DNA of 33,040 nt from Myxococcota bacterium. Lineage in GTDB: Bacteria; Myxococcota_A; UBA796; CAJQPC01. Both the position numbers and the translations under genes were made by a program. The stretch spans positions 1-33,040 of the forward strand of contig JAZAMN010000067.1 in assembly GCA_036229005.1 (NCBI GenBank), read 5' to 3'. The notes under the pieces were generated by a model, which was given only the letters and a program-made list of their open reading frames with translations, was not told where the DNA came from and searched no databases. Below, one piece after another: positions 1,303 to 28,075 of the stretch. Numbering within the stretch: the stretch's first letter is position 1; each line of letters starts with the position of its first letter.

Positions 1303-3648
1303 TCACTCGCAGATCCCTGCGCTGTTGCAGGTCTCCCCGGAGCCACAGTCCGCGCTGGTGGTGCACTGGGCGCAGTCGGTGACATCGCCGGTGCTCGACT
1401 GCACCAGGTGGTCGCTGTCGACGATCGCGAAGCCCGGGATCACCACGCCGTCGCCATAGGTGCAGGAGGCGCTGGCGCACATCGTGTCGTAGTCGTCGTA
1501 GCCGCTGACAAAGCCCTCGGCCCAGACCAACTCGAAGGGGTCGATGGCGCAGTTCAGGTTGGTGCTCCACTGCACCTCAAAGGCGTAGAGGCCCGGCTCG
1601 GGGAAGCTCACGTAGGTGAACTTCTTCCACTGGCCGTCGCTCCACTGGACGCTCAGGACCTCCGTGCCCTCGATGGAGAAGGACAACGCGTCGTTCCCGA
1701 TGAGCCCCATCGTGTAGTTCAGGGGGTCATCACAGCCAATGTTGAGGTAGCCCCGGAAGCGCCCGGCGCCCACGCTGCTGGTCCCGCTCAGGGTGGGCCA
1801 GTCGTTGGTGCTGCTGGAGTAGTTGCCCATGGACGCGGCGTAGTCGCTGCCGCAGCGGTTGGAGTAGTCCAGCTCGTCCACGGTGTCCGACTCGCTGTAG
1901 GTCGCAGACTCCAGCGCCGTCATGTAGGTGGACAGGTTGGCGCTGTAGTGCGGGTTCGCGCTGGTGGAGAACTCGCCGATCAGGCTGCAGGCCCCGCCGT
2001 GGCTGGGGCTCTCGACCTCGCCGTGGGAGGGGGAGGAGATGAGCGTGGGATCGGAGCAGTCGGTGTCGGCGGTCCCATCACAGTCCGTGTCGGCCCCATC
2101 ACAGATCTCATACGCGTCGGTGTTGACGAGGCCATCGGCATCATCGCAGTCCGTGTTGTCCTCGACATAGCCGCTGGGCGCCTCGCACTGGGTGGTCGGG
2201 CTGGCGGAGTCATCGCCGAAGCCGTCACAGTCCAGGTCCGGATACCAGTCCGTGGCGTCCGTGGCGTTGTTGTCGACCGTGCCGTCGCAGTCGTCGTCGA
2301 CCTCGTTGCAGGTCTCCGTGCCGGCGGGGCTCACGTCCGCGTCGGTGTCGTCGCAGTCGCTGCTGTCCGAGGTCCACCCCGAGGGCTCCTCGCAGGCGGT
2401 GGTCGTGTAGTCGGTGGAGCCGTAGCCATCGCCGTCGTAGTCGATGTACCAGGTGCTGGCGTCGGCCGCGTCGTCCTCGTCCGTGTCGCCGTCACAGTCG
2501 TCGTCCACGCCGTTGCACAGCTCGCTGGCCGCCGGAGAGACCGCCGCGTCGCCGTCGTCGCAGTCCAGGGCGTTCCCCACCGCTCCGCTCGGCGCCGTGC
2601 AGGCCTCCGAGCTGCTGCCCGCGTCTCCGTAGCCGTCCGCGTCCGTATCCGCGTACCAGGTGGCGGCGTCCGAGGCCTCCTCGTCCACGCTCCCGTCGCA
2701 GTCGTCGTCCCCGGCGTTGCAGACCTCGCTGCCCGCGGGGTTCACGCTGGCGTCCCCGTCGTCGCAGTCCGTGCTGTCCGCCAGGTACCCGGAGGGCTGC
2801 TCGCAGGCGACCTTGCTGGCTCCCGCGTCGCCGTAGCCGTCCGTGTCCGCGTCGGCGTACCAGGTGCTCGCGTCGGCGGCGTCGTCCTCGTCGCTGTCGC
2901 CGTCGCAGTCGTCGTCCACCCCGTTGCACAGCTCGGTGGCGCCCGGGTTCACCTCCGCGCTCCCGTCATCGCAGTCGCTGCTGTCCGCGACCGCACCACT
3001 GGGGGCCTCGCAGGAGACCGAAGCGCTGTCGGGGTCCCCGTACCCATCGCTGTCGGAGTCGGTGTACCAGGTGCCTGCGTCCACCGCCGAGTCCTCGTCG
3101 ACCTCCCCATCGCAGTTGTTGTCCACACCGTCGCAGACCTCGGCCGCGTCGGGGTTCACGCCAGGGCTCGCGTCGTCGCACTCCTCGCAGGCCGCGAAGC
3201 CGTCCCCATCGGCGTCCGCGTAGCCCACCGAGCCGTCGCAGTTGTAGTCGGCCGGGTCGGTGCAGTCGTCTTCTGCCGCGCCCGGGTGGTAGGCGGTGTC
3301 GCCGTCGTCGCAGTCCCCATCCAGCTCCACGGTGCCAAAGGGTGCCTCGCAGGCCTGGGTCCCCTCCCCCGTCCCGTAGCCATCGCCGTCGGAGTCCAGG
3401 TACCAGGTGGCCGCGTCCACGGCGTCCACGTCCACGCGCCCGTCGCAGTCGTTGTCCACGCCATCGCAGAGCTCGTCGGCTCCCGGATACACGGCCGCGT
3501 CGTTGTCGTCGCAGTCCTCGGCCGCGCCGATCCCGTCGCCGTCCAGGTCCACCAGCTCGCCGGTGTCGTCCTCGACCAGGGCCGAGGTGTCCAGGGCGGC
3601 GTCCTTGGTGCGGCAGCCGAGCGCGGCCAGGATCAAGAGCAGGGACAT
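1303..3648 (-). CDS. Lipoprotein with 8 putative metal-binding (MopE-related) repeats and a C-terminal PA14/TraA-like domain
   Basis: Start reassigned to ATG 3648 (MSLLLILAALGC lipobox, GGAG upstream); 8 x (D/E)CDD...P...E.C...D..CDG repeats with WY.D.DGDGYG linkers; C-terminal RFRGYLNI...F.EPGLY..E and CTTSADC motifs. Confidence 0.85.
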   Translation of the reverse strand: MSLLLILAALGCRTKDAALDTSALVEDDTGELVDLDGDGIGAAEDCDDNDAAVYPGADELCDGVDNDCDGRVDVDAVDAATWYLDSDGDGYGTGEGTQACEAPFGTVELDGDCDDGDTAYHPGAAEDDCTDPADYNCDGSVGYADADGDGFAACEECDDASPGVNPDAAEVCDGVDNNCDGEVDEDSAVDAGTWYTDSDSDGYGDPDSASVSCEAPSGAVADSSDCDDGSAEVNPGATELCNGVDDDCDGDSDEDDAADASTWYADADTDGYGDAGASKVACEQPSGYLADSTDCDDGDASVNPAGSEVCNAGDDDCDGSVDEEASDAATWYADTDADGYGDAGSSSEACTAPSGAVGNALDCDDGDAAVSPAASELCNGVDDDCDGDTDEDDAADASTWYIDYDGDGYGSTDYTTTACEEPSGWTSDSSDCDDTDADVSPAGTETCNEVDDDCDGTVDNNATDATDWYPDLDCDGFGDDSASPTTQCEAPSGYVEDNTDCDDADGLVNTDAYEICDGADTDCDGTADTDCSDPTLISSPSHGEVESPSHGGACSLIGEFSTSANPHYSANLSTYMTALESATYSESDTVDELDYSNRCGSDYAASMGNYSSSTNDWPTLSGTSSVGAGRFRGYLNIGCDDPLNYTMGLIGNDALSFSIEGTEVLSVQWSDGQWKKFTYVSFPEPGLYAFEVQWSTNLNCAIDPFELVWAEGFVSGYDDYDTMCASASCTYGDGVVIPGFAIVDSDHLVQSSTGDVTDCAQCTTSADCGSGETCNSAGICE

Positions 3649-3714
3649 GGGGAACTCCGGGGTCAGGGGCCGGCATACTACCGAAGACACCGGCCCTGTG
3701 GCAGCATTCGCGCC

Positions 3715-6054
3715 ATGTGGACATGGATCACCGCACTCTCTCTCGCCAGCGCGCCCAGCCTGGCCGGCCCGAACCCCGCCTTGGAGGCCGATCTCCAGAC
3801 GCTCCAGGCGCAGCGCTGGCAGGACTCCCTGGACAGCACCGAGTACGCGGCCTCGCCCTACCAGAGCGCCGCCGATCTGCCCCCCGTGCTGGAGGTGGAG
3901 ACCGCGTTCCAGGCCTTCAACGACTACTACTACTTCGCGCTGGTGGACGGGCGGCTCTACTACAAGCCCCGCTTCAAGCGCCCCGCCGGCGAGCCCGACT
4001 GGGTGACCGACCTCCCCTGGAAGCTGCTGGGCCACGGCGGCGGCCTCCCCTACCGCCTGGACCACCGCAAGGCCGAACAGCTCGACACCACCTGGGCCGA
4101 CGGGGACCGCAACGGCTTCGTCCACGACCGGGCCTTCGAGACCGCCACCCCGGACCAGTGGCGGGACTACATCGACGTGGCCGGCTGGGAGGCCGCCAGC
4201 GCCTGGTCCGATGAGCCCATCGCCCTGGACCCCGAGTTCCCCAGCGCCGAGCGCCTGATCGCCATCACCGCCGACGCCGACGAGATCGCCGTGCTCACCA
4301 GCGACCGCCGCATGTTCTACCGGCGCAAGTTCGCCAACATCTTCGTCAGCGCCGAGTGGCAGGCCGGCTGGGGCCAGTCCAAGGACCTGCCCGTCTACTT
4401 CCCCGAGCACCTCAGCGACCACCTGGGCTGGTCCCTGGGCCGCATCACCGCCGCGGGGGTCGGCTACAAGGAGGGCCCCGACGGCCGCATCTTCGAGTGG
4501 GGCCCCGCCGCCGTCTCCATGGAGACCATGGTCTGGCTCAGCCCCGACGGCCGCAAGATCTACTACCTGGACTCCGGCACGCCCCCCGAGGTCGTCCACT
4601 TTGTCGAGGCCCCCTTCCGCGGCCAGTGGCGCGGCGAGGCCATCAACTCCGCCGCCTCCACCGTCATGCTCATCGACCGCTTCGGCGCCGTGCAGACCAA
4701 GATCGCCGACTTCGACCTTCTGGGCAGCACCCCCACGCACCCCTACTGCTACAACCAGGAGTGCGACGACGAGCCCTTCTACGCCCCCGGCGACATCCGC
4801 TCCGGCATGGCCGACATCCGCCTGCCCCCCGAAGGCTGGATGGTCCACAGCCCGGTCCTCCCCCCCGAGCAGTGGGACGAGCAGAACTTCCTCACCCGCC
4901 GCATCAGCATCCTGCAGACCGGCAAGGGCAACGCCTCCCGGGAGCTCCGCATCGTCGGGATGAAGGAGGGAGAGGTGGGGACCTGGTACAAGGCTCTGAC
5001 CGACACCGTCTGGTCATTTCGGGCCGCCGCGCCTGGTGACCTGGGCTTCGCGTTCACCGACGAGGACAGGCTGTCCCCCTCCGAGCTCGCCCAATACAGC
5101 GCGGACGCCGACCTGCAGGCCCTCCACGCCGCCGAGCCCTCCCTGGATCAGGAGCTGGTCGGCAAGCTCGCCCTGCGCGAGGGCGTGGTGCTGGACTTCG
5201 TCATCGACGACTTCAACCTGGAGGCCAGCCCCTGGCAGGCCCACATCCGCTGGCGCGAGGTCGACCTGCCCCTGCAGGTGCACGTGGTCCAAGCCTGGAA
5301 CCCCTACATGGCCCCCCACAGCGGCCCCGGGCGCCCGGAGATCCACAGCTACGAGGCCACCCTCTCCTTCGACCGCGCCGATCTCGAACGCCGCATGGCC
5401 GGCGGCGAGGCCAGCTCGGTCGAGGGCCTGATGATCCGCTCGCTGCTGGAGGAGCTGGAGAACGACAAGTTCGCCCTGGTCATCAACGCCAGCGAGCGCG
5501 GCTTCGAGGTGCTGCCCAAGTCCAAGCGCCGCATGGGCAAGGGCTTCGCCGTCGCGCTCCAGCCCACCCTGCGCCCGGAGAGCGAGGCCGTCTCCGACTG
5601 GTTCACCGCCTTCTGGAACACCCAGGCCGGCCACATGGGCTGGACCGCCGAGCTGGCCGCCCTCTCGGCCCAACCCCAGTGCGGCCAGGGCTGGGCCGCC
5701 CAGGTCGTCGAGCTGGACCAGCGCATCACCACCGAGCGCAAGGAGCTCAATCAGGTCTGGCGCGAGGCCCGGCGCTTCTCCCGCTTCACCTTCACCACCA
5801 GCGGGCTGATGTACGTCACCCAAGCCAAGACCCTGGACGCGGCGCTGGACAACCGGCGGGAGTGGCGCGGCACCGAGGTGCGCCCCAACGAGCTCCGCTT
5901 CAACGTCATCACCGGCGTCACCAGCCGCATCCCCTACCTGGCCGCCAACATCGCCCGGGTGCAGCGCGCGCGCGCCCAGGCCGCCGCGTCCGAGGCCGAG
6001 GCCCTGCAGCCCGAGCTGGACGCCCTGGTCGAGATCGCCGAGGCTTGTGACTGA
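3715..6054 (+). CDS. Secreted hypothetical protein (779 aa), aromatic-rich, probably beta-rich with a helical C-terminus
   Basis: Real start is ATG 3715 (MWTWITALSLASAPSLA signal peptide); strong GC3 bias; the 5' part of ORF 1264..6054 is the antisense shadow of the neighbouring gene. Confidence 0.8.
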   Translation: MWTWITALSLASAPSLAGPNPALEADLQTLQAQRWQDSLDSTEYAASPYQSAADLPPVLEVETAFQAFNDYYYFALVDGRLYYKPRFKRPAGEPDWVTDLPWKLLGHGGGLPYRLDHRKAEQLDTTWADGDRNGFVHDRAFETATPDQWRDYIDVAGWEAASAWSDEPIALDPEFPSAERLIAITADADEIAVLTSDRRMFYRRKFANIFVSAEWQAGWGQSKDLPVYFPEHLSDHLGWSLGRITAAGVGYKEGPDGRIFEWGPAAVSMETMVWLSPDGRKIYYLDSGTPPEVVHFVEAPFRGQWRGEAINSAASTVMLIDRFGAVQTKIADFDLLGSTPTHPYCYNQECDDEPFYAPGDIRSGMADIRLPPEGWMVHSPVLPPEQWDEQNFLTRRISILQTGKGNASRELRIVGMKEGEVGTWYKALTDTVWSFRAAAPGDLGFAFTDEDRLSPSELAQYSADADLQALHAAEPSLDQELVGKLALREGVVLDFVIDDFNLEASPWQAHIRWREVDLPLQVHVVQAWNPYMAPHSGPGRPEIHSYEATLSFDRADLERRMAGGEASSVEGLMIRSLLEELENDKFALVINASERGFEVLPKSKRRMGKGFAVALQPTLRPESEAVSDWFTAFWNTQAGHMGWTAELAALSAQPQCGQGWAAQVVELDQRITTERKELNQVWREARRFSRFTFTTSGLMYVTQAKTLDAALDNRREWRGTEVRPNELRFNVITGVTSRIPYLAANIARVQRARAQAAASEAEALQPELDALVEIAEACD

Positions 6055-11098: not shown

Positions 11099-12321
11099 GG
11101 CGCCTCTACCTCCGCGTCCTGTCCGCCGCGATGCTGGCCTTCCTGGTCGGAGCGACCCTGTTGGGGCTCACGCTGCTCCGGGTCCGGGACGCCGACCGTC
11201 AGGTGGTGGCCCAGAGCCTCCACGGCGGCATGGTCGCCGCCGAACAGACCCTCTCCGACCGCGGCGCGACGCCCCAAGTGCTGGCCGAGCTCCGCCGCCA
11301 GTTCCGCTTGGACCTCCAGCTCCGCCCCCCGAGCGAGCTCCCCGCCCAGGCTCAGCGCGAGCTCGCCCCCGGCGAGACCACCTACTTCATGTCCGCGGAC
11401 GGTGGCTTTGCGGCCATCCCCCACCGCCAGCAGGTCCTGGTGCTGGGCCCCATCCCGGACTTCCAGCTCCCGCCAGCCTGGGAGCTGCTGCTCACCTTGC
11501 TCCTGGTCAGCCTGGTCTTTGCGGGCGTGCTGGCCCTGGGCCTGTTGCCCACCTGGCGCCGCTTGGGCGAGCTGGAGTCCGGCGCCCTGGCGCTGGCCAG
11601 CGGACGCTTCGACACCCGCGTCCAAGAGAGCGGGGAGCTCTACCAGCTCGGACACACCCTCAATCACCTCGCTGGCGGGATCGAGTCCCACCGGCGCGCG
11701 CAGGCCGAGCTGCTCCATGCGGTGAGCCACGAGCTCCGCACGCCCCTGGCCCGCCTCGCCTTCGCCCTCGAAGCCCTCCCGGTGGAGGAAGGGGACCTGG
11801 GCCCCGCTGAGCGTGAGATCCACCACCTGGACGCCCTGGTCGGGGAGCTCCTGACCTGGTCTCGTGCCGGCGAGGACACCCTCTCGCCGACCCCCTTGGC
11901 GCTCCCCCAGGACCTGCCGGACCAGACGCTCTCCCTGTCGGGCCCCCCCGTCCGGCTCCTGGTGGACCACCGCCTCTTCCTTCGCTGCCTGGACAACCTG
12001 GTCCGGAACGCGCGGCTGCATGGCGCCGAGCCGATCCGGGTCCACTGGACCCGCGACGGTCAGCGCCTGACGCTCTGTGTCGATGACGCGGGCGCCGGCA
12101 TCCCCGAGCACGACCGTCAGCGCGCGCTGCAGCCCTTCGCCCAGCTCGGAGCAGGGCCGGGCCACGGCCTGGGGCTCGCCATCGCAGACCGGAGCTGCGC
12201 GCGTCACGGGGGCACTCTGCGCCTGGAGACCAGCCCGCTCGGAGGCCTCCGCGCCCGCACCGACTGGCCTGTACATGTTGATACAGAGCGCGACACAGGA
12301 ACAAACGACAGCGGCGACTGA
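11095..12321 (+). CDS. Sensor histidine kinase (RstB-like; 2 TM, HAMP, HisKA, HATPase)
   Basis: GTGA overlap with the regulator; H-box VSHELRTPL, N-box NLVRNA, G1 DDAGAGIP, G2 GHGLGLAI. Confidence 0.93.
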   Translation: MRRLYLRVLSAAMLAFLVGATLLGLTLLRVRDADRQVVAQSLHGGMVAAEQTLSDRGATPQVLAELRRQFRLDLQLRPPSELPAQAQRELAPGETTYFMSADGGFAAIPHRQQVLVLGPIPDFQLPPAWELLLTLLLVSLVFAGVLALGLLPTWRRLGELESGALALASGRFDTRVQESGELYQLGHTLNHLAGGIESHRRAQAELLHAVSHELRTPLARLAFALEALPVEEGDLGPAEREIHHLDALVGELLTWSRAGEDTLSPTPLALPQDLPDQTLSLSGPPVRLLVDHRLFLRCLDNLVRNARLHGAEPIRVHWTRDGQRLTLCVDDAGAGIPEHDRQRALQPFAQLGAGPGHGLGLAIADRSCARHGGTLRLETSPLGGLRARTDWPVHVDTERDTGTNDSGD

Positions 12322-12339
12322 GCCAGGCAGCCTGGACGC

Positions 12340-13461
12340 ATGAAGCGACTGACCGGCCTCGACCTCGCGCGCTCGCTGGCCCTGATGGGCATGGTCTGCG
12401 TCAACATCCCCCTGGTCTTCTCGGCCCTGGACACGGGCGCCGCCGCCCAGCTCATGGATCTGATGGCTGGACGCGCCGCTGCGCTCTTTGTCGTCCTGGC
12501 CGGCGCCGGGAACAGCCTGATGACCCGCGGCGGCCGCCAGGACAGCGCGCGCGCCGCCCACGACCGCGGGCTCATCGTGCGTCGGGCCCTGTTCCTCTTC
12601 GTCCTGGGCATTGGGTGGCTGCCCCTCTGGCCCGGCGACATCCTCCACTTCTACGGCGTGTGGATGCTGATGGCCGCCGGCCTGTTCACCCTCCCGACCC
12701 GCGCCCTGCTCCCGCTGGCCGCCCTCTTCACCCTGGCCTTCCCCGTGCTGCTCGCGGTCGGGCCCTCCTACGAGACCGCCTGGGACTGGGAGACCTTCAC
12801 CTACGCGGATCTGTGGACCCCGCGCGGCTTCTTGAGGAACACCTTCTACAACGGACTCCACCCCGTGTTCCCCTGGTTCGCCTTCTACCTGGGAGGCATG
12901 TGGCTGGGCCGCCAGGACCTCGACCTCCCCCGCCGCCCGCGCCGGCTGCTGGTGGTGCTGGTCCCCCTGTGGCTGCTCATGGAGGCCCTGGGGATTGGGC
13001 TCACCCAGGCGCTCCTGAACCAGGGCCTGTCCCCCGTCGAAGCCGACGCCATCGGCGGCGTGAGCTCCATGCCGCCCATGCCCCAGTACGTGCTGGGCGC
13101 TGGCGCTGCGGCCATGGTCGTCACCCTGGTCTGCATCCCCATCGCAGAGCGTTTCCCCCGCCTGTGCGCGCCGCTGGTCGCCACCGGCCAGCTCGCCCTG
13201 ACCCACTACGCCAGCCATGTCTTCCTGCTGCTCTACCCTCTGGCGCTGCTGTGTGCGCCGGAGACCCTGGAGCTGCCCGGAGCCCCCCGCCTGCGGATGA
13301 GCGGCCCTCTGCTCCTGGGCGCCATGGCCACCTGGGCCACCCTCAGCGTCGGCCTGTCCTGGGCCTGGCGGCGTCGCTTCCCGCGGGGGCCGCTGGAGTG
13401 GGTCATGCGGCGCCTCACCACCCCCCAACCCCAGAGCACTGCTCGGGAGCAGCAAGCATGA
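12340..13461 (+). CDS. DUF418/YeiB-family multi-pass membrane protein
   Basis: RLTGLDLARSLAL start, GDILHFYG, GQLALTHY, RGPLEW.MRR end. Confidence 0.88.
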   Translation: MKRLTGLDLARSLALMGMVCVNIPLVFSALDTGAAAQLMDLMAGRAAALFVVLAGAGNSLMTRGGRQDSARAAHDRGLIVRRALFLFVLGIGWLPLWPGDILHFYGVWMLMAAGLFTLPTRALLPLAALFTLAFPVLLAVGPSYETAWDWETFTYADLWTPRGFLRNTFYNGLHPVFPWFAFYLGGMWLGRQDLDLPRRPRRLLVVLVPLWLLMEALGIGLTQALLNQGLSPVEADAIGGVSSMPPMPQYVLGAGAAAMVVTLVCIPIAERFPRLCAPLVATGQLALTHYASHVFLLLYPLALLCAPETLELPGAPRLRMSGPLLLGAMATWATLSVGLSWAWRRRFPRGPLEWVMRRLTTPQPQSTAREQQA

Positions 13462-14042
13462 TCCTCCTCTTCCTCGCGGTCAGCCCCACCTCGCCGTCGC
13501 CACAGAGCCTGCTGGAGGCGAGCCTGGCCGGCCCGTCCTGCGGTGTGGCGACCATTGAGCTGCGCCAACAAGCCGCCCTCCGTCCCCTCTGGAGAGACAG
13601 CGAGCACCACCGCATCACCGCCCGCCTCCAGGGCGGCGTCTGGAGCGATGTCCAGCACACCCCCCTGGCCGACCACGACCCCAGCACACCCCTGGAGGAG
13701 GGCCCCTACCCCTTTGTACTCCCCGGCGTCGGCCAGTGGCCCAATGACCCCGACCCGGTGTTGTGGAAGGACGGCCTGCCGACCCCACGCCCAGCCGGAC
13801 AGGGCTGGCTGTGGACCACCCCCGACTACCGCCTGAGCTGGCAGCCGGGCCGGGTCAACCTGGAGGCTCCCGGCCGGATGCAGGAGGAGGGAGGGGGCTG
13901 GATTGAGGACCTGAACTGGTCCCTCACCTTCGACGCACAAGGGCGCCCGGAGCGGGAGAAGGGCTCCCTGCGCGCCGGCGAGGACGGGGTTGCGCTGACC
14001 TTTGCCTGGACGGTGGAGTATTCGTGGGCGGCGTGTGGGTGA
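13458..14042 (+). CDS. Hypothetical exported protein (194 aa)
   Basis: ATGA overlap with the DUF418 stop; short hydrophobic N-terminus; Trp-rich beta-like body. Confidence 0.65.
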   Translation: MILLFLAVSPTSPSPQSLLEASLAGPSCGVATIELRQQAALRPLWRDSEHHRITARLQGGVWSDVQHTPLADHDPSTPLEEGPYPFVLPGVGQWPNDPDPVLWKDGLPTPRPAGQGWLWTTPDYRLSWQPGRVNLEAPGRMQEEGGGWIEDLNWSLTFDAQGRPEREKGSLRAGEDGVALTFAWTVEYSWAACG

Positions 14043-14070
14043 GGCGAGGGTGGGGTTGTGAGGGGGGGGC

Positions 14071-15459
14071 TCAGCTCAGGCTGGCCAAGACGTGGTCCCA
14101 GGTCGCGCTTCTCTCGAAGTAGCTCTGATGGTTCACGCCGGGCTCGTTGAACTCCAAGAGCCGCCCATCGGTCACAGGGAAGGTGCCCTTCGGCCCAGTC
14201 ACCCCAGGGGCTCCACAGGTCACGGTTGGTACGATCAGATCGCAGTCGCGCCCCTCGAAGGCCAGGTCCTCGAAGGCGTCGATGGCGAGCTGACTGAACT
14301 CGCCCCCTCCGGTGAGGCGGCACTGCACGGCGTAGTAGCTGGCGCTGGTCTTGAACGTCTCGCTGTCGTTGAGAGCGGCGAGCAGCTCGCTCTCGGTGCC
14401 CTGGGCCGCAAGACCGGGGAAGCGAGAGGCCAGGGTGACCGCCCCTTTGAGGATGATGCTGATGGCGGCGACCACCACACTGAGGCCCCAGACCTGACAC
14501 AGACGCGCCAGGAGTTTGGGAAAGAGCATCGCGCTCTCGACGACCTTCATCAGGTTGTCCTCGTCTGCGAGGGGGGTGCCGGCGTTTGGGGTGCCGACAA
14601 AGACCAGGCGGTGGACCTTGATCTTGGAGATGCCAGGGATCCCCTTCCTCCCCACCCGCTCGGTCAGACGTCGGGCGACCAGGCCGCCTCGGCTCACCGC
14701 GACGATGTCCAGATCCAGGCTGTGGCCGTCCAGCTGCTTGAGCAGGCCGACGACGTTGCTGCGGGGAGACTGGCTCAGCACGCGGTAGTCCATTCCGACG
14801 ACCCGGCCTTCATAGCGGTCCAGCAGCCCCTTGAAGCCCGCCAGACCGGCCTCGCTGCCCTGCCCGAAGCCCTTGTGGCAGGCGCGACCGGTCCCATGGA
14901 TGAGCATCAGCGTGCGGCCCTCTGCCAGGTGGTCCCAGTCCACGGGGCCAGCGGGGGTAGGTGAGCTCCAGTCGCTGAGGCTCATGGGGCGCAACAGATC
15001 GCGGAAGCCCTTCCGCTCATCCAGCTTTCTGGCGATCTTCTTGGCGACCCGATGCTTGAGCCACTGGATCTTGGCCTTGCCGAACTCGGCCGCGCGTCGG
15101 CCCATCCAGCGGAGCGCGGCCTTGGTGGCCCGAACCACCAGCTTGCCTGCGATCTTGCGGCCGATGCCGACCAGATCCTCTCCTGAGAACACCAGGGCGA
15201 AGTCGGCAGCACGTCGGACCGTGAGCAGCAGCTCGAAGACCTCGAGCTCTTCGTCGGCGCCATCGTCCCCAGGACCAAAGGGCTCGCTGTTCAGGTCCGC
15301 GGGGGGCTCGATGTAGAGCTCGGTGACGGCGACCACCTCAACGCCCAGCTCCCTTGGATCGCCGGCGCCAAAGCTCTCCGCCTTGGGGAGCTCGGCGAGC
15401 TCCAGGTAGAAGCCCTTGGCGGTGGCATCGCCAGCCTCTGAGAATTCGATCTGCTCCAT
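14071..15459 (-). CDS. Alpha/beta-hydrolase (lipase/esterase-like, PGAP1/LCAT-like motifs) with charged N-terminal extension
   Basis: LIHGT oxyanion motif, VAVSRGGLVAR elbow, FVGTPNAGTPLA, CDLIVP (Asp), NHQSYF (His); GGAG RBS 7 nt before ATG. Confidence 0.85.
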   Translation of the reverse strand: MEQIEFSEAGDATAKGFYLELAELPKAESFGAGDPRELGVEVVAVTELYIEPPADLNSEPFGPGDDGADEELEVFELLLTVRRAADFALVFSGEDLVGIGRKIAGKLVVRATKAALRWMGRRAAEFGKAKIQWLKHRVAKKIARKLDERKGFRDLLRPMSLSDWSSPTPAGPVDWDHLAEGRTLMLIHGTGRACHKGFGQGSEAGLAGFKGLLDRYEGRVVGMDYRVLSQSPRSNVVGLLKQLDGHSLDLDIVAVSRGGLVARRLTERVGRKGIPGISKIKVHRLVFVGTPNAGTPLADEDNLMKVVESAMLFPKLLARLCQVWGLSVVVAAISIILKGAVTLASRFPGLAAQGTESELLAALNDSETFKTSASYYAVQCRLTGGGEFSQLAIDAFEDLAFEGRDCDLIVPTVTCGAPGVTGPKGTFPVTDGRLLEFNEPGVNHQSYFERSATWDHVLASLS

Positions 15460-15502
15460 GATCTACTCCAATTGGGGGGGCTATTCGGCCGACTGTCTGT
15501 GT

Positions 15503-16633
15503 TCAGTCACCGCCGATGATGATGTGGGAGCCCAGGGGCTCAGGGCTGTTGGTGACCGGCCGCCAGTGGTCTCCGGAGAGCTGCGGCTTGACCTCGACAC
15601 CTGGCTGCGTGGGGTCGCCCAGGAACTGCACCCAGGGACCGTCTCCGAGCTGGGCATCCAGGGCCTGCGCGACCCGCTCGCGCGCCTGCTGGGTCTCGGG
15701 CGTTGAGAAGAGCCCCAGTCCGTCGTAGAGCAGGCGGAGCGAGGTCTGGAGCACCGGCAGGCCCTCATAGGCAGCGCGCAGGAAGACCTGGTCGATGGGC
15801 TCGCGGCTCTGGCCCGTCCGCAGCAGCCAGTGTCCGTAGATGGCGGTTGCGTCGGAGATCCCCAGGTAGGTCCCCAGGTTCTCCCACCAGTGCTCCCGAC
15901 CCCGCAGGTGCCCTGCACGAAGCAGGTGCATCGCTCCGACGATTGCGCCGGTGGGGTCTCGGAACTTCTCGTGGAAGAGATCGATGGCGATGCCCTTGGC
16001 GAGCAGCCCCGCCTCGCGATTGGCGCCCAAAGCGCCGAGCTCCAACAGGTGGTCCATGGCCGGGTTCTGTGTACTCACCCGTAGCACTCCGTTCAGCTCC
16101 AGCTCGGCCCGTGCTGACGCAGAGGGCACCCCACAGCAGCGGGCGCTCAGGGTGGGGCTGGCGACCTGGATGAAGCTGCAGAACTCGGGGTACTCGGAGG
16201 TGCGCCACCGGCCTCCGACGCACCGCCAGTAGCGGTAGTGCAAGCCAGAGAAGCGACTCCCCAGCGCCTTGTGGACCTGGACGTCAGCCAGCCGCTCTGG
16301 GTCCAACTCCAGCTCCGGTGACGCCGCCGCGACCTTCACCAGGCGACGCCAGCTGGACTTGGGGAGCTTGCTCGGGCGATCCGACATCAAGGCCGACAGA
16401 TCGAGCTCCGGGCGGTCCCGCAGGTCGAGCTCAACCGTGTCGTTGGGCCGCAGGACCTGTTGGTGGGTCTGTGTTCCATCGCGGAGCTCGAGCCACAAGG
16501 TCTGTCCATCCAGGTCGAGTTCGGTGGGCTCCCCGGCCAGCAACGTGCCTGATGACTGCGGCTCGAAGGTCTCCGGGTGGATCAACGTCCAAGGGAGCAC
16601 CTGGTGGTCGGCGTGGACGGTCAGGCTTGCCAC
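15503..16633 (-). CDS. Hypothetical protein coupled to the caspase gene (beta-rich N-terminus, helical C-terminus)
   Basis: GTG 16633 with GGAGG 7 nt upstream, overlapping the caspase stop; C-terminal LFHEKFRDP...W.ENL...GLPVLQTSLRLLYDGL. Confidence 0.75.
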   Translation of the reverse strand: MASLTVHADHQVLPWTLIHPETFEPQSSGTLLAGEPTELDLDGQTLWLELRDGTQTHQQVLRPNDTVELDLRDRPELDLSALMSDRPSKLPKSSWRRLVKVAAASPELELDPERLADVQVHKALGSRFSGLHYRYWRCVGGRWRTSEYPEFCSFIQVASPTLSARCCGVPSASARAELELNGVLRVSTQNPAMDHLLELGALGANREAGLLAKGIAIDLFHEKFRDPTGAIVGAMHLLRAGHLRGREHWWENLGTYLGISDATAIYGHWLLRTGQSREPIDQVFLRAAYEGLPVLQTSLRLLYDGLGLFSTPETQQARERVAQALDAQLGDGPWVQFLGDPTQPGVEVKPQLSGDHWRPVTNSPEPLGSHIIIGGD

Positions 16634-17721
16634 TTGAGCACCTCCACGGCCGCAGGCGGCACCACCAAGGCGTCGGTCTCCACCGCCTTGGGCTGGGCGC
16701 CATCCTTGGGCTCCGCTCGCAGGGTCCACTGTCCCGGAGAGAGGGCCCCCCGCCAGATGCGCTGTACGGGCTTGGGGAAGGCAACGCTCTCCCCGCCTGA
16801 GTGGGCCCTCAGGTCGGACTTGCCAGCATTGGGCCGGGGATCCGCGTGGACCACAACCCGGACCGTCGGGGGCTCGGGCAGCTCAGTCAGGGTGATGTCC
16901 GCGTCCCCTTCGATGAAGGTCGGGGGTTTGTGTTGGTCCAGGCGCATGTACTGGGAGACCGCCTCGAGCAGCCGGTCCGCGCGGGTGCTCCAGGTGCCCA
17001 TCTCCTTTGCGGCGGCACCCCCTCGGAGCGCCTCGATCAGCGCCTCGCAGAAGAAGCTGGGGGCCCCCTCTGCCCCAAAAGCCTGCGTGAACGCTTTGGT
17101 CGCGAGCAGCCCGGTGGACTTGAGGTCCACCCAGTCTGCGGCATCGAACACAGAATCGAACATGCCCAGGGGCGCGTCGGTGAGGGCCGGCATCGCCTCG
17201 TTCCGGCAGGCGTCGATGAACCAGAGCTGCTCACGGGGCCTGGCGGAGGCGAGCCCGCTGCGGGACTTCTGGAAGCTGATGCCCCGAAGCATCATGGGCC
17301 CCACCCCGCTCCCGAAGTCCTCGGGCAAGAGCACCGGGTCGGCGCGCAGACCGTGACCGCAGTAGTAGCAGAGCAGTCGGTCATCCGGGCGGTCGGAGGC
17401 GGCCTTCCACGCTGCGGCGGTCTCCAGGATCTTCTGGAAGCTCGCGCGGGGCGGGCTCCACCCTGCAGGCAGCTCCGGCTCCTGCCCCGCGATGGGCGAG
17501 AGCAGCAGACGAAGGGAGCCCAGGGGCTTGGGGCCCAGCTCCGCCTGCGCCACAAGGTGCTTGGCCATCGCGACGGCCGAGTGAGGCGGTGAGCTCAAGC
17601 TGCCCATCATCTGTAGCTCTTCGGGCCCGGTGTCCCCGCCCAGGTTCGGGTAGTGTCCTACCCCAATGACCAGAGCGTGGGTGGCTGGGCCGGCGCGGTC
17701 CTGTTGGTAGACGACTGGCAG
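16621..17721 (-). CDS. Caspase-family cysteine protease (peptidase C14) with C-terminal beta-sandwich; probable CTG start
   Basis: THALVIGVGHY first strand in frame upstream of the ORF-track start; catalytic YYCGHG and FIDACR; small-subunit-like ATKAFTQAFG...SFFCEALIEAL; GGGAGG 5 nt before CTG. Confidence 0.9.
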   Translation of the reverse strand: MPVVYQQDRAGPATHALVIGVGHYPNLGGDTGPEELQMMGSLSSPPHSAVAMAKHLVAQAELGPKPLGSLRLLLSPIAGQEPELPAGWSPPRASFQKILETAAAWKAASDRPDDRLLCYYCGHGLRADPVLLPEDFGSGVGPMMLRGISFQKSRSGLASARPREQLWFIDACRNEAMPALTDAPLGMFDSVFDAADWVDLKSTGLLATKAFTQAFGAEGAPSFFCEALIEALRGGAAAKEMGTWSTRADRLLEAVSQYMRLDQHKPPTFIEGDADITLTELPEPPTVRVVVHADPRPNAGKSDLRAHSGGESVAFPKPVQRIWRGALSPGQWTLRAEPKDGAQPKAVETDALVVPPAAVEVLKWQA

Positions 17722-17759
17722 CGGGGCCTCCCTCTGTTCCTATGTAGGCTGGGAGGGAG

Positions 17760-17765
17760 ATTGTA
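17760..17765 (-). promoter_or_regulatory. Possible -10 element (TACAAT) for the caspase operon
   Basis: 5/6 match to TATAAT about 40 nt upstream of the CTG start; no convincing -35. Confidence 0.35.
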
Positions 17766-17882
17766 GCTTTGCGACGGGGAGACTGATTGAGCCCCCGGCC
17801 ATCCCAGGAGAGTCGGCCAGCCGACCACAGGCTGATCACACCACCGGTCAGGCCCGTTGGACCGGATGGGCAGGCCCAGGTC

Positions 17883-24632: not shown

Positions 24633-24748
24633 GTCCTTGTGTGTCGGAAAGTCGGGGGGTGTTGCGGAGGGGGGCTGGCGCGCGCGCTCGAAATCCCCCG
24701 AAATGTCGACCACTGGGACCAACCGTTAGAGATGACGGGGAGCCCGAT

Positions 24749-27700
24749 ATGACCTGGATCTTCGCCCTGCTCGCCGCTTGCACCCCTCAGCAGACGGGCT
24801 GCGACCCCAACCTGGAGGTGGGCTACCAGGACGCCGACGGCGATGGCTACGGAGACCTGAGCCAGCCGGTGACCGAGTGCCAGGCGCTGCCATCGGTGCC
24901 GGACGCCAGCGACTGCGACGACCAGGACCCGGACGTGCACCCGGACAGCACTGAGGTCTGTGACGGCGTCGACAACGACTGCAGCGGCGCGGTGGACGAC
25001 GACGCGAGCGACGCCCCGGTCTGGTACGCCGATCTGGACGGCGATGGCTACGGCGACCCCGAGAGCACCGTGGCGGCCTGCAGCCTGCCCTCCGGGTACA
25101 CGGACGACTCCCAGGACTGCGATGACAGCGACGGCGCCATCCAGCCCCTGGCCGACGAGCTCTGCGACGGGGTCGACAACGACTGCGACGGGGAGACCGA
25201 CGAGGACAGCGCGGTCGACGCCCTGACCTGGCACGCGGACCTGGACGGCGACGGCTTCGGGGATGCCAGCGCCCCTGCCCTGGCCTGCGCCCAGCCCAGC
25301 GCCCACGTAGCCGACCACAGCGACTGTGATGACAGCGACCCGGACACCTTCCCCGGCGCCCCTGAGCTCTGCGACGGGCACGACGACAACTGCGACGGCG
25401 TGACCGATGAAGACAGCGCCGTGGACGCCGGGAGCTGGCACCTGGATGCGGACGGGGACGGCTTCGGTGACCCGGACGACGCGCTGCCCTCCTGCGATGC
25501 CCTCAGCGGGCGCGTAGCGGACAGCAGCGACTGTGACGACAGCGATCTGGCCATCCACCCGGACGCGCTGGAGGTCTGCGACGGGATCGACAACGACTGC
25601 TCGGGCGCTGCGGACGAAGACAGCGCCGTGGACGCCCTCACCTGGTACGCCGACAGCGACTCGGATGGGTATGGAGACTTCACCGACAGCGCGCAGGCCT
25701 GCACCCAGCCTTCGGGGCGGGTGTCCCGGGCCGGCGACTGCGACGACACGGACGGCGCCACGTACCCCGGCGCCGATGAGATCTGCGACTCCGCGGACAA
25801 CGACTGCGACGGCAGCAGCGATGAATCCGCCGTGGACGCGGGGACCTGGTACACCGACGCGGACAGCGACGGCTACGGCACCACAGCCAGCGCGACGGTC
25901 TCCTGCACGCAGCCCTCGGGGACGGTGGCCAGCGACGGCGACTGCGACGACGGCGACGCGAGCATCAGCCCTGGCGCGACAGAGCTCTGTGACAGCGTGG
26001 ACAACGACTGCGACGGAAGCACCGACGAGGACGACGCGGCCGACGCAGCGACCTGGTACGCCGACGCGGACGGGGACGGCTACGGAGACAGCAGCAGCAC
26101 CACCACCGCCTGCACGCAGCCCAGCGGGACCACCAGCGACGCGACGGACTGTGACGACGGCGACGACAGCGCCTACCCCGGCGGCGAAGAGCTCTGCGAC
26201 GGGGCGGACAACGACTGCGACGGCAGCGTGGACGGGACCTCGGTCCCGGGCGACTACAGCACCATCCAGGGCGCGATCGACGCGGCGTCATCGGGCGACC
26301 TGATCTGCGTGGCCTCAGGCACCTGGTATGAGACGCTGGACTTCTCCGGGAAGGACGTCATCGTCGGGGGAAGCTCCGGGAGCGGCGCCACCACGCTGGA
26401 CGGCAGCGGGAGCGGACCGGTGGTGACCGCGGACTCTGGCGAGTCCACCAGCGCGATGCTCCATGGCTTCACCGTCACCAACGGAGACGCCCAGTACGGC
26501 GCCGGGATCTACGTGGAGAACAGCGGCCTGAGCCTCAAGGACGTGGTCTCCACCGGGAACAACTACAGCGGGAGTTGCTTTGGCGCCGGCCTCTACAGCA
26601 GCAACGCGACCCTGGCGATCCAGGACAGCCGCTTTGACGCCAACACCTGCGACGCCGGCTGGGGGGTGGGCGCCTACCTCAGCGGCTCCACAGTGACGGT
26701 CCAGAGCACCAGCTTCGACCAGAACAGCGCGGGGAACCACTCCCTCGTCTACGGCGTCGGACTCTACCTGAGTGGGACGACGCTGAGCGGCACGGATCTG
26801 TCGGCCTCCGAGAACGAGGCTGAGGGAGGCGGCGCAGCGAGCGCGCTGGGGCTTGGACAGTACAACGGAACCAGCACCATCACTGGCCTGGTGGTCGAGG
26901 GAAACCAGACCACCGACACGGGCTCCGGCGAGATCACCAGCGCCTCCGGGGGGGTGATCGCGCTCAGGGGGAGCAGCGCCTCGGCCACCTGGACCGACCT
27001 GAGCCTGGATGACAACACCATCGCGGCCGACGGGGACATCCAGGGAGGCCTGCTCTACTGCCGAGACGGCACCCTGGTGCTGGACACCGTCTCCATCTCC
27101 GGCGTCGACGTCAGCACCAGCCAGGACGACATCGAGGGAGGGCTCTTCTATCTGGAGAGCTGCACCGCGAGCATGGCCGGGCTGGAGATCGATGGAAACA
27201 GCGTCAGCCAGACCAGCACCGCGTTGGGGGGCTACACCGCCTATGTGGACGGCGGACTTCTCCAGTTCGTCGACACCACCGCGACCCTGGATGACCTGAG
27301 CGTCACGGACAACGCCGTCTCGCACGTCTCGACCGCGGGAGGTGTGGACGGTGGCCTGATCTATGTCGAGGGTACAAGCCGGGTGGACATCTCGGACTTC
27401 GAAATCCATGACAACACCCTGGATTGTGGCGGGAGCTGCTCAGGCGCGCTGTTCTACAGCTACGCAAAGAGCCTGGATCTCTCCCAGGGGTGGCTGGCGG
27501 ACAACATCGGCCAGAGCGGCCTGTGGTGGGGTGGCGTCGGCGCGGTGTTGACCCCCGTGAGCCTGACCAACGTCATCGTGGCCAACAACCAGCTCCAGGA
27601 CGGCGCGGTCGGCACGACCTTCTATGGCAAGTCCAACGCCGATCTGGAGCTGACCAACGTGGACCTGGTCGACAACGGCTGCAGCTCGGGCAGCTCGGGC

Positions 27701-28075
27701 AGCTGCACCGGCGGCGGGATTCTTGCCCAAGGCGGTGACTACACCTTCCTCAACGTGAACGTGGTGGGCCACACCAGCGCGGCTGGAGGCGTGATCTACG
27801 ACTACTACAGCACCGCCAACACCTCCTTCGAGTACTCGAACTTCTACAACAACGGCGGCTCCGCCTTCACCAACGTGACCACGCCCAGCAGCAGCGACGG
27901 GAACCTCTTCGTGGACCCCAGCTACACCGACACCAGCGCGACCGACGCCATGGACTGGGACCTGAGCCTCGCCAGCGGCTCCAGCTGCATCGACGCCGGA
28001 GACAGCAGCCTCCGGGACCGGGACGCCAGCCGCTCGGACATCGGCGCCTATGGAGGCTGGGGCGGCAACTGGTAG
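24749..28075 (+). CDS. Lipoprotein with 7 MopE-related repeats and a C-terminal beta-helix domain (1108 aa)
   Basis: Start ATG 24749 (MTWIFALLAAC lipobox, GGGGAG RBS); 7 DCDD..P...E.CD..D..C repeats; VPGDYSTIQGAIDAA cap; GGL/GAG repeats; SSCIDAGD...RSDIGAYGG end. Confidence 0.9.
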   Translation: MTWIFALLAACTPQQTGCDPNLEVGYQDADGDGYGDLSQPVTECQALPSVPDASDCDDQDPDVHPDSTEVCDGVDNDCSGAVDDDASDAPVWYADLDGDGYGDPESTVAACSLPSGYTDDSQDCDDSDGAIQPLADELCDGVDNDCDGETDEDSAVDALTWHADLDGDGFGDASAPALACAQPSAHVADHSDCDDSDPDTFPGAPELCDGHDDNCDGVTDEDSAVDAGSWHLDADGDGFGDPDDALPSCDALSGRVADSSDCDDSDLAIHPDALEVCDGIDNDCSGAADEDSAVDALTWYADSDSDGYGDFTDSAQACTQPSGRVSRAGDCDDTDGATYPGADEICDSADNDCDGSSDESAVDAGTWYTDADSDGYGTTASATVSCTQPSGTVASDGDCDDGDASISPGATELCDSVDNDCDGSTDEDDAADAATWYADADGDGYGDSSSTTTACTQPSGTTSDATDCDDGDDSAYPGGEELCDGADNDCDGSVDGTSVPGDYSTIQGAIDAASSGDLICVASGTWYETLDFSGKDVIVGGSSGSGATTLDGSGSGPVVTADSGESTSAMLHGFTVTNGDAQYGAGIYVENSGLSLKDVVSTGNNYSGSCFGAGLYSSNATLAIQDSRFDANTCDAGWGVGAYLSGSTVTVQSTSFDQNSAGNHSLVYGVGLYLSGTTLSGTDLSASENEAEGGGAASALGLGQYNGTSTITGLVVEGNQTTDTGSGEITSASGGVIALRGSSASATWTDLSLDDNTIAADGDIQGGLLYCRDGTLVLDTVSISGVDVSTSQDDIEGGLFYLESCTASMAGLEIDGNSVSQTSTALGGYTAYVDGGLLQFVDTTATLDDLSVTDNAVSHVSTAGGVDGGLIYVEGTSRVDISDFEIHDNTLDCGGSCSGALFYSYAKSLDLSQGWLADNIGQSGLWWGGVGAVLTPVSLTNVIVANNQLQDGAVGTTFYGKSNADLELTNVDLVDNGCSSGSSGSCTGGGILAQGGDYTFLNVNVVGHTSAAGGVIYDYYSTANTSFEYSNFYNNGGSAFTNVTTPSSSDGNLFVDPSYTDTSATDAMDWDLSLASGSSCIDAGDSSLRDRDASRSDIGAYGGWGGNW

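Follow-up and report, generated by a model that had tools for sequence, protein, structure and literature searches.

A CanAB caspase operon with a lipase-fold hydrolase as its third gene, a likely abortive-infection switch in a Myxococcota bacterium

Introduction

A caspase-like protease that shares an operon with a lipase-like hydrolase raises the question of whether the one activates the other and, if so, to what end. Such an operon lies on the minus strand of a 33,040-nucleotide stretch of DNA (the window) from a Myxococcota bacterium (contig JAZAMN010000067.1, assembly GCA_036229005.1), with three intact open reading frames (ORFs) in a row at 16621-17721, 15503-16633 and 14071-15459. A preliminary description had proposed a protease/adaptor/effector module that matched no named system. 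As a module this reading holds and has become more specific, the cut motif predicted for the caspase family being present twice in the hydrolase; the novelty is lost for two of the three genes, since these belong to Canu as CanA and CanB (PMC12799240).

Canu is the CanABC system of Klebsiella aerogenes (Tuck et al., Science 2025, PMC12799240). CanA is there a MALT1-like caspase with which CanB co-purifies, CanAB activates CanC, a pro-nuclease of the metallo-beta-lactamase (MBL) fold, as a DNase, and defence against T4 depends on the two active sites as well as on the two predicted cut sites, that is the Gly of each motif (PMC12799240). The operon in the window is CanAB with a lipase-fold hydrolase: CanA and CanB are near-obligately linked, the catalytic residues are intact, a twin motif is conserved in the hydrolase and there is no CanC nuclease. 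It is likely to be an abortive-infection switch, in which phage-triggered CanAB would cut the hydrolase at both motifs to free a probably membrane-damaging enzyme.

The CanA and CanB genes

The ORF coordinates bear out the layout described earlier, three co-oriented genes with a 13-nt overlap and then a 43-nt gap, and GGAGG or GGAG lies 6-7 nt ahead of every start, in keeping with a Shine-Dalgarno (SD) sequence before each gene. The first gene (16621-17721, minus strand) encodes a CanA-type caspase of 366 residues (Peptidase C14, MALT1-like; PF00656, E 1.4e-6; PADLOC caspase, E 5.6e-16). The dyad claimed for this C14 protease is intact, CGHG supplying His123 (17353-17355) and DACR supplying Cys172 (17206-17208), with H123 invariant and C172 nearly invariant among 81 aligned homologues. 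The start is a CTG (17719-17721) with GGAGG six bases upstream; the database gene call of 329 residues is 37 codons shorter and drops a conserved first strand, the family being about 370-390 residues long (90 matches). The family profile matches 10 PDB sequences, every one of them MALT1 (E 5e-4 to 2e-3), so that the MALT1-like caspase with a His-Cys dyad that defines CanA is present, and KaeCanA bears the family motifs when compared by eye. The alignment has a conserved region of about 80 residues at the CanA C-terminus, which may correspond to the Ig-like domain that CanA of Canu has there. PADLOC, proposed at the outset as a check on the three genes, returned 'caspase' as its sole result and called no named system. 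Assignment as an EACC1-type caspase was rejected, the NCBIfam match scoring 28.7 bits against a cutoff of 140.

The second gene (15503-16633, minus strand, from GTG at 16633) encodes a protein of 376 residues that had been described as unknown, and which belongs to Pfam PF27295 (Y4kD_C), the CanB family, with 300 representatives at E<=0.001. It was recognised neither by PADLOC nor by the Pfam copy used for the first scan of the window. The AlphaFold2 model (pLDDT, the predicted local distance difference test, 81.6) has an Ig-like sandwich (1-72), a second beta domain (132-187) and TPR-like helices (190-327), and the protein carries no C-terminal fused domain. Structural matches were to generic folds, TPR proteins at Z 8-10 and CnaB/Ig domains at Z 7-8, and a Foldseek search gave no match at E<=0.001. 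The combination of Ig-like and TPR parts beside canA is that of CanB, and the consensus motifs of the family alignment are found by eye in KaeCanB.

The hydrolase and its twin motif

The third gene (14071-15459, minus strand) encodes a lipase-fold alpha/beta-hydrolase of 462 residues in the DUF7379 family (PF24096, E 1.4e-33), a predicted zymogen effector. Its Ser-Asp-His triad is intact as first described (Ser256, 14692-14694; Asp407, 14239-14241; His444, 14128-14130), is invariant across 72 aligned homologues and lies in a confidently modelled region, the best Foldseek match being T1 lipase (E 2.8e-8). The catalytic domain starts at about residue 180. Ahead of it, residues 1-80 contain 21 D/E and 3 K/R, and residues 101-150 contain 18 K/R and 3 D/E.

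Two predicted CanA cut sites are found in this N-terminal part. A low-confidence loop (30-42) begins at site 1, E28-S-F30-G31 (15367-15378, minus strand), and a low-confidence segment (59-98) at site 2, E59-P-F61-G62 (15274-15285, minus strand). The E, F and G of both sites are invariant in four clade sequences that are 48-98% identical, with the neighbouring residues varying. Strict E-x-F-G occurs twice within the first 180 residues in 2 of 2189 genome ORFs, one of them probably this hydrolase, and in 0.29% of shuffles; the relaxed motif gives 1.6% of genome ORFs and 3.5% of shuffles. The N-termini of 101 other DUF7379 proteins lack the strict motif in 97 cases, have one copy in four and never have two. 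Those proteins have conserved Arg columns, with at least two RG dipeptides in 88 of the 101 (a raw count), and there is no RG dipeptide in the first 185 residues of the window hydrolase.

In KaeCanC the essential G104 and G189 sit in E-G-L-G and E-S-M-G (PMC12799240), and the window hydrolase shares with this Canu effector the presence of two Gly-containing predicted cut sites. The wider form, E-x-[FLM]-G, is present in 54 of 54 CanA-linked MBLs (at least two copies in 43) and in 18 of 25 alpha/beta-hydrolases encoded upstream of CanA (at least two copies in 10).

We infer a cut between F and G, a lipid substrate, a phage trigger and a role for CanB as sensor or scaffold. A phage signal would activate CanAB, upon which CanA would cut the hydrolase after F30 and F61. 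The acidic N-terminal pro-region, which is predicted to mask the basic segment 101-150 and the active site, would then be released, and the freed lipase domain would attack membrane lipid, with the cell dying or arresting.

Standalone full-length DUF7379 proteins are encoded directly behind a CHAT protease in 5 of 5 loci examined (L167-L171, actinobacteria), and the plasmid matches to DUF7379 are CHAT-domain proteins in 3 of 3 cases; together with the conserved Arg columns this argues that DUF7379 is habitually coupled to a protease. The CHAT and DUF7379 pairs are probably a further protease-zymogen module, and the window hydrolase would have been recruited from CHAT-protease operons, with its Arg-Gly-type sites replaced by E-x-F-G.

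Linkage and exchangeable effectors

Neighbourhoods were compared in the best 80 of 150 GTDB loci from a caspase alignment search, a set biased by its seed motifs and rich in Streptomyces. CanB adjoins the caspase in 78 of the 80 and is downstream in 77. An MBL-fold gene follows in 45 loci, an upstream alpha/beta-hydrolase precedes in 21 and none has both (E<1e-15). Because the partner is near-constant and MBL or hydrolase alternate, CanAB is regarded as the core and the effector slot as exchangeable. The 33 metagenome loci, mostly short, have gene 2 in 16, an MBL in seven and an upstream hydrolase in five. One locus fuses caspase and partner, another partner and MBL.

For the window's own combination, a caspase (cluster 1, 53% identical) and a hydrolase (cluster 3, about 63-64%) have two contig sizes in common (42945 and 34818 nt), and a CanB (P0095, 40% identical) and a hydrolase (P0246, about 47-48%) have one (21570 nt). 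The matching sizes imply CanAB-hydrolase linkage in two further organisms, and the hydrolases on these contigs are exactly the twin-motif homologues.

Other CanAB loci vary in content. On the symbiotic plasmid of Sinorhizobium fredii NGR234 (L001:6809-10802) an upstream hydrolase, a caspase and a Y4kD-family gene lie in a row; this hydrolase-type locus is the probable source of the Pfam name Y4kD. Extra genes directly upstream of CanA, mostly without the motif, occur in MBL-type loci and are Tle1-like (L004, L009, L049), patatins (L024, L033, L118) or S8 proteases (L054, L061, L064, L065, L067). Some loci appear degraded, with a CanB-MBL remnant (L032:9059-9649), a missing CanB (L057:9122-10442) or an upstream hydrolase split by a stop (L046:6772-8004).

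Comparison with known systems

The window shares with Canu the order of caspase, Ig/TPR partner and effector, the CanA and CanB families and a twin E-x-[FLM]-G in the third gene. It differs in that the third gene encodes a DUF7379 lipase-fold hydrolase where that of Canu encodes an MBL nuclease, in that the sites lie in an N-terminal pro-region, and in that its CanA falls among caspases linked to hydrolases. A FastTree of 105 caspases puts this protein, along with its 53% identical relative, in a group of 36 rows (SH-like support 95), of which 23 are hydrolase-linked and one is MBL-linked; the finer placement is unsure because of long branches. The genome, which is 94% complete, gave no gated MBL of the CanC kind, its two weak MBL matches being without gating motifs. 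Since the third gene is DUF7379 and no gated MBL lies elsewhere in the genome, the window holds CanA and CanB without CanC, and since the nuclease that defines Canu is missing it is a new effector variant rather than a strict member of Canu.

The pairing of caspase and alpha/beta-hydrolase was first noted by Kaur et al. (2020, PMC7159879), and LcHydrolase, encoded beside LcCaspase, becomes toxic after two Arg-Gly cuts (Evans et al., 2025, PMC12642450). What the two loci have in common is a caspase next to an intact hydrolase that has a Ser-Asp-His triad and two predicted cut sites. In the available part of that study, however, the LcHydrolase sites are Arg-Gly and internal and no CanB is described, whereas those of the window are E-x-F-G and N-terminal. 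The two hydrolases are also of different families, judged indirectly through a CanA-linked upstream hydrolase that is LcHydrolase-like by eye and that matches DUF7379 with a probability of 13% over 23 columns. The CHAT and DUF7379 operons and fusions likewise couple this hydrolase family to a caspase-fold protease, but the protease is CHAT rather than C14, the sites are conserved Arg rather than E-x-F-G and there is no CanB.

CapV of the cyclic oligonucleotide-based antiphage signalling system (CBASS) is a patatin-family lipid hydrolase activated by cyclic dinucleotides that serves as an abortive-infection effector. The comparison with CapV drawn earlier stands for function and fails for the fold, the window hydrolase having the classical lipase fold; CBASS differs further in that a Pfam scan found no cyclase or patatin among the 30 window ORFs. 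A CATRA/CATASP identity was dropped for want of a Pfam match. Literature searches with y4kD, y4kE, DUF7379 and PF27295 found no relevant paper, and Canu terms led only to the Canu paper and Evans et al.; caspase with tyrosinase or astacin led to the two Kaur papers, the accessible parts of which do not describe this system. No paper was found on CanAB with DUF7379 or on the motif across effector families, as far as the sources were accessible, and PMC7685563, PMC10681802, Fig. 4B/S2 of the Canu paper and the supplementary figures of Evans et al. may hold related loci.

Locus and distribution

The block had been said to use visibly more A/T-ending codons than its flanks. The shift is real but modest, the GC content at third codon positions (GC3) being 0.861, 0.859 and 0.853 in the three genes against 0.876-0.929 in flanking genes. 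This places the block at about the 5th-6th percentile of 2189 filtered genome ORFs, the true percentile being somewhat higher as the filter removes values below 0.80. By eye, none of the three proteins has a signal peptide. The locus shows no sigma-70 promoter, no convincing terminator and no flanking repeat. The flanks are a DUF418/HGSNAT membrane protein with a 194-residue protein of no known identity and a LamB-type porin (Pfam scan). Further out are two large proteins (1303-4848, minus; 24641-28075, plus) with 7-8 MopE-like putative metal-binding repeats (PF11617) each.

The left flank and the whole block (12111-17782) recur in a 6354-nt contig of another public run with 92 substitutions and four gaps, and the listed indels fall between genes, so the block is not an assembly artefact. 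The best-covering public runs carry marine or seawater metagenome labels, and there is no RNA dataset among the listed runs that cover the locus.

A search of 154 genomes of the order gave CanA in four, with none in the 21 others of the family or the three others of the genus. One same-genus genome retains four syntenic left-flank genes followed by a different gene, and two others have the porin gene with other neighbours. Since these genomes keep flanking genes without the module, the module is accessory; as the flanks are not adjacent in them, no insertion site can be defined. A metagenome scan with the single caspase gave nothing, the second scan gave the 33 loci mentioned above with none of the window's clade, and no relative was found in viral contigs.

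Motif and effectors beyond the window

The motif recurs in proteins of other families beside CanA. In 5 of 5 astacin-like genes that lie immediately upstream of CanA (L030:7115-7981, L036:7124-7951, L043:6681-7508, L084:7064-7912, L060:7011-7931), E-x-[FL]-G marks the junction between pro-peptide and catalytic domain, and its Gly is 9-11 residues away from the Trp of that domain. The motif is absent from the junction in seven unlinked astacins from four genomes, six of them of one genus, four of the 11 controls having been left out as their match started mid-domain. Astacins mature by a cut of the pro-peptide that gives the mature N-terminus, and the motif position fits a cut before the Gly. 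Tyrosinases with DUF7868 upstream of CanA-type caspases (L094:578-2053, L095:2417-3736) have two E-x-[FL]-G each, one at the C-terminal DUF7868 boundary, and these loci may possibly encode a protease-activated phenoloxidase. A CanB-fused S8 protease has the motif ahead of its catalytic domain. To judge from motif position in the astacins, tyrosinases and S8 protease, cleavage would fall between the hydrophobic residue and Gly. A 310-residue ORF directly upstream of CanA (L034:6980-7912) has no Pfam match and E-S-F-G at position 50, and is a candidate new effector.

CanB varies at its C-terminus. Extensions of more than 90 residues are present in 16 of 92 complete CanB proteins (9 of 22 hydrolase-linked, 1 of 53 MBL-linked and 6 of 17 others). 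Those identified include EF-Tu, IF2, sigma-70 region 2, ketoacyl synthase, TPR, pentapeptide repeats, pYEATS, DUF2188, trypsin-PLD and S8, with RNA polymerase alpha C-terminal domain (alpha-CTD) and RAMA extensions in longer database matches. In-frame fusions to a near-complete EF-Tu, IF2, a sigma-70 region-2 domain, ketoacyl synthase or alpha-CTD are found at L083:9017-11599, L034:9059-12670, L043:9092-11143 and L062:8990-11497 and in P0124 and P0137. Plant nucleotide-binding leucine-rich repeat (NLR) receptors carry integrated decoy domains, and by analogy the CanB-fused copies of host proteins are candidate integrated decoys, which suggests a decoy-sensing role.

There is an even chance, in our estimation, that Canu forms one branch of a wider platform: CanAB would be a general licensing protease that reads E-x-[F/L/M]-then-Gly on unrelated zymogens (MBL DNase, two alpha/beta-hydrolase families, astacins, pro-tyrosinases, S8), would capture effectors by cut-site rewriting, and would use CanB as a sensor with fused copies of phage-targeted host proteins (EF-Tu, IF2, sigma-70, alpha-CTD, FabF) in the manner of plant NLR decoys. 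As Canu was defined from a nuclease, the nuclease-less branches fall outside its definition.

Alternative explanations

Several points weigh against a phage-triggered CanAB-hydrolase switch. The trio was read directly only in the window, the two further organisms resting on equal contig sizes with neither showing all three genes, and a search of 181 other genomes of the class gave no close homologue of the hydrolase. The co-occurrence of the three families anticipated at the outset holds for caspase and CanB and fails for DUF7379, which was not seen next to CanA in any of the 122 other loci (80 GTDB, 33 metagenome, five plasmid and four from relatives); the variant is rare. With respect to the motif, 7 of 25 CanA-linked upstream hydrolases lack E-x-[FLM]-G, P0245 and P0246 each also have two RG dipeptides at unshared positions, the Arg-type protein P0306 holds four relaxed motifs, and the chance figures are partly post hoc because the motif was spotted after the MBL consensus had been seen. 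Both sites precede the catalytic domain, whereas the gating loops of CanC and LcHydrolase are internal, and the low model confidence at both sites may stem from the alignment. The KaeCanC scissile bond is itself predicted and unmapped in the available text (PMC12799240). Finally, the Pfam scan of the 30 window ORFs found no other defence or mobility gene, and the defence-island and transposase setting of Canu is absent from the window.

That absence is in keeping with CanAB cutting and activating the hydrolase for a non-phage purpose, such as lysis tied to stress or development, or the remodelling of lipids, in a marine bacterium with a large genome. CanA neighbours elsewhere are tyrosinases, astacins and S8 proteases rather than classical death effectors, and a CanB fused to a housekeeping domain might serve to signal general stress. 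Nevertheless the sole tested member, Canu, is anti-phage (PMC12799240), the distribution in the order is patchy, and plasmid copies of CanA sit among transposases and S8/AAA, TIR and CHAT genes, such that we regard a non-phage role as improbable.

A second explanation makes the hydrolase a bystander, with CanAB either an orphan that lost its nuclease or acting directly on host proteins and the motifs coincidental. Effector-less caspases can defend alone, according to Evans et al. (PMC12642450), and the lack of DUF7379 beside CanA elsewhere fits. The strict twin motif is nonetheless invariant at 48-64% identity and the pair is absent from the 101 relatives, the hydrolase gene follows at 43 nt with its own SD, and the equal contig sizes point to co-occurrence in two more organisms, all of which makes this explanation quite unlikely. 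That the hydrolase is constitutively active or accessory, with cleavage inactivating, relocating or degrading it or its N-terminus a pseudo-substrate restraining CanA, would suit sites outside a catalytic domain whose triad region is modelled confidently without them, but is very unlikely given that cleavage activates in the tested protease-effector pairs (PMC12642450, PMC12799240) and that the astacin motif position fits activation.

Significance

For CanAB with a lipase-fold hydrolase, the locus yields a residue-level prediction for a non-nuclease output, comprising two cut sites, one dyad and one triad, and a four-letter motif by which likely substrates can be picked out next to any CanA. 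If true, it would show a defence protease capturing new effectors via cut-site rewriting and would give a role to two unannotated families, Y4kD and DUF7379. The natural fusions of CanB to host proteins would then also make the role of CanB, left open in the Canu paper, testable.

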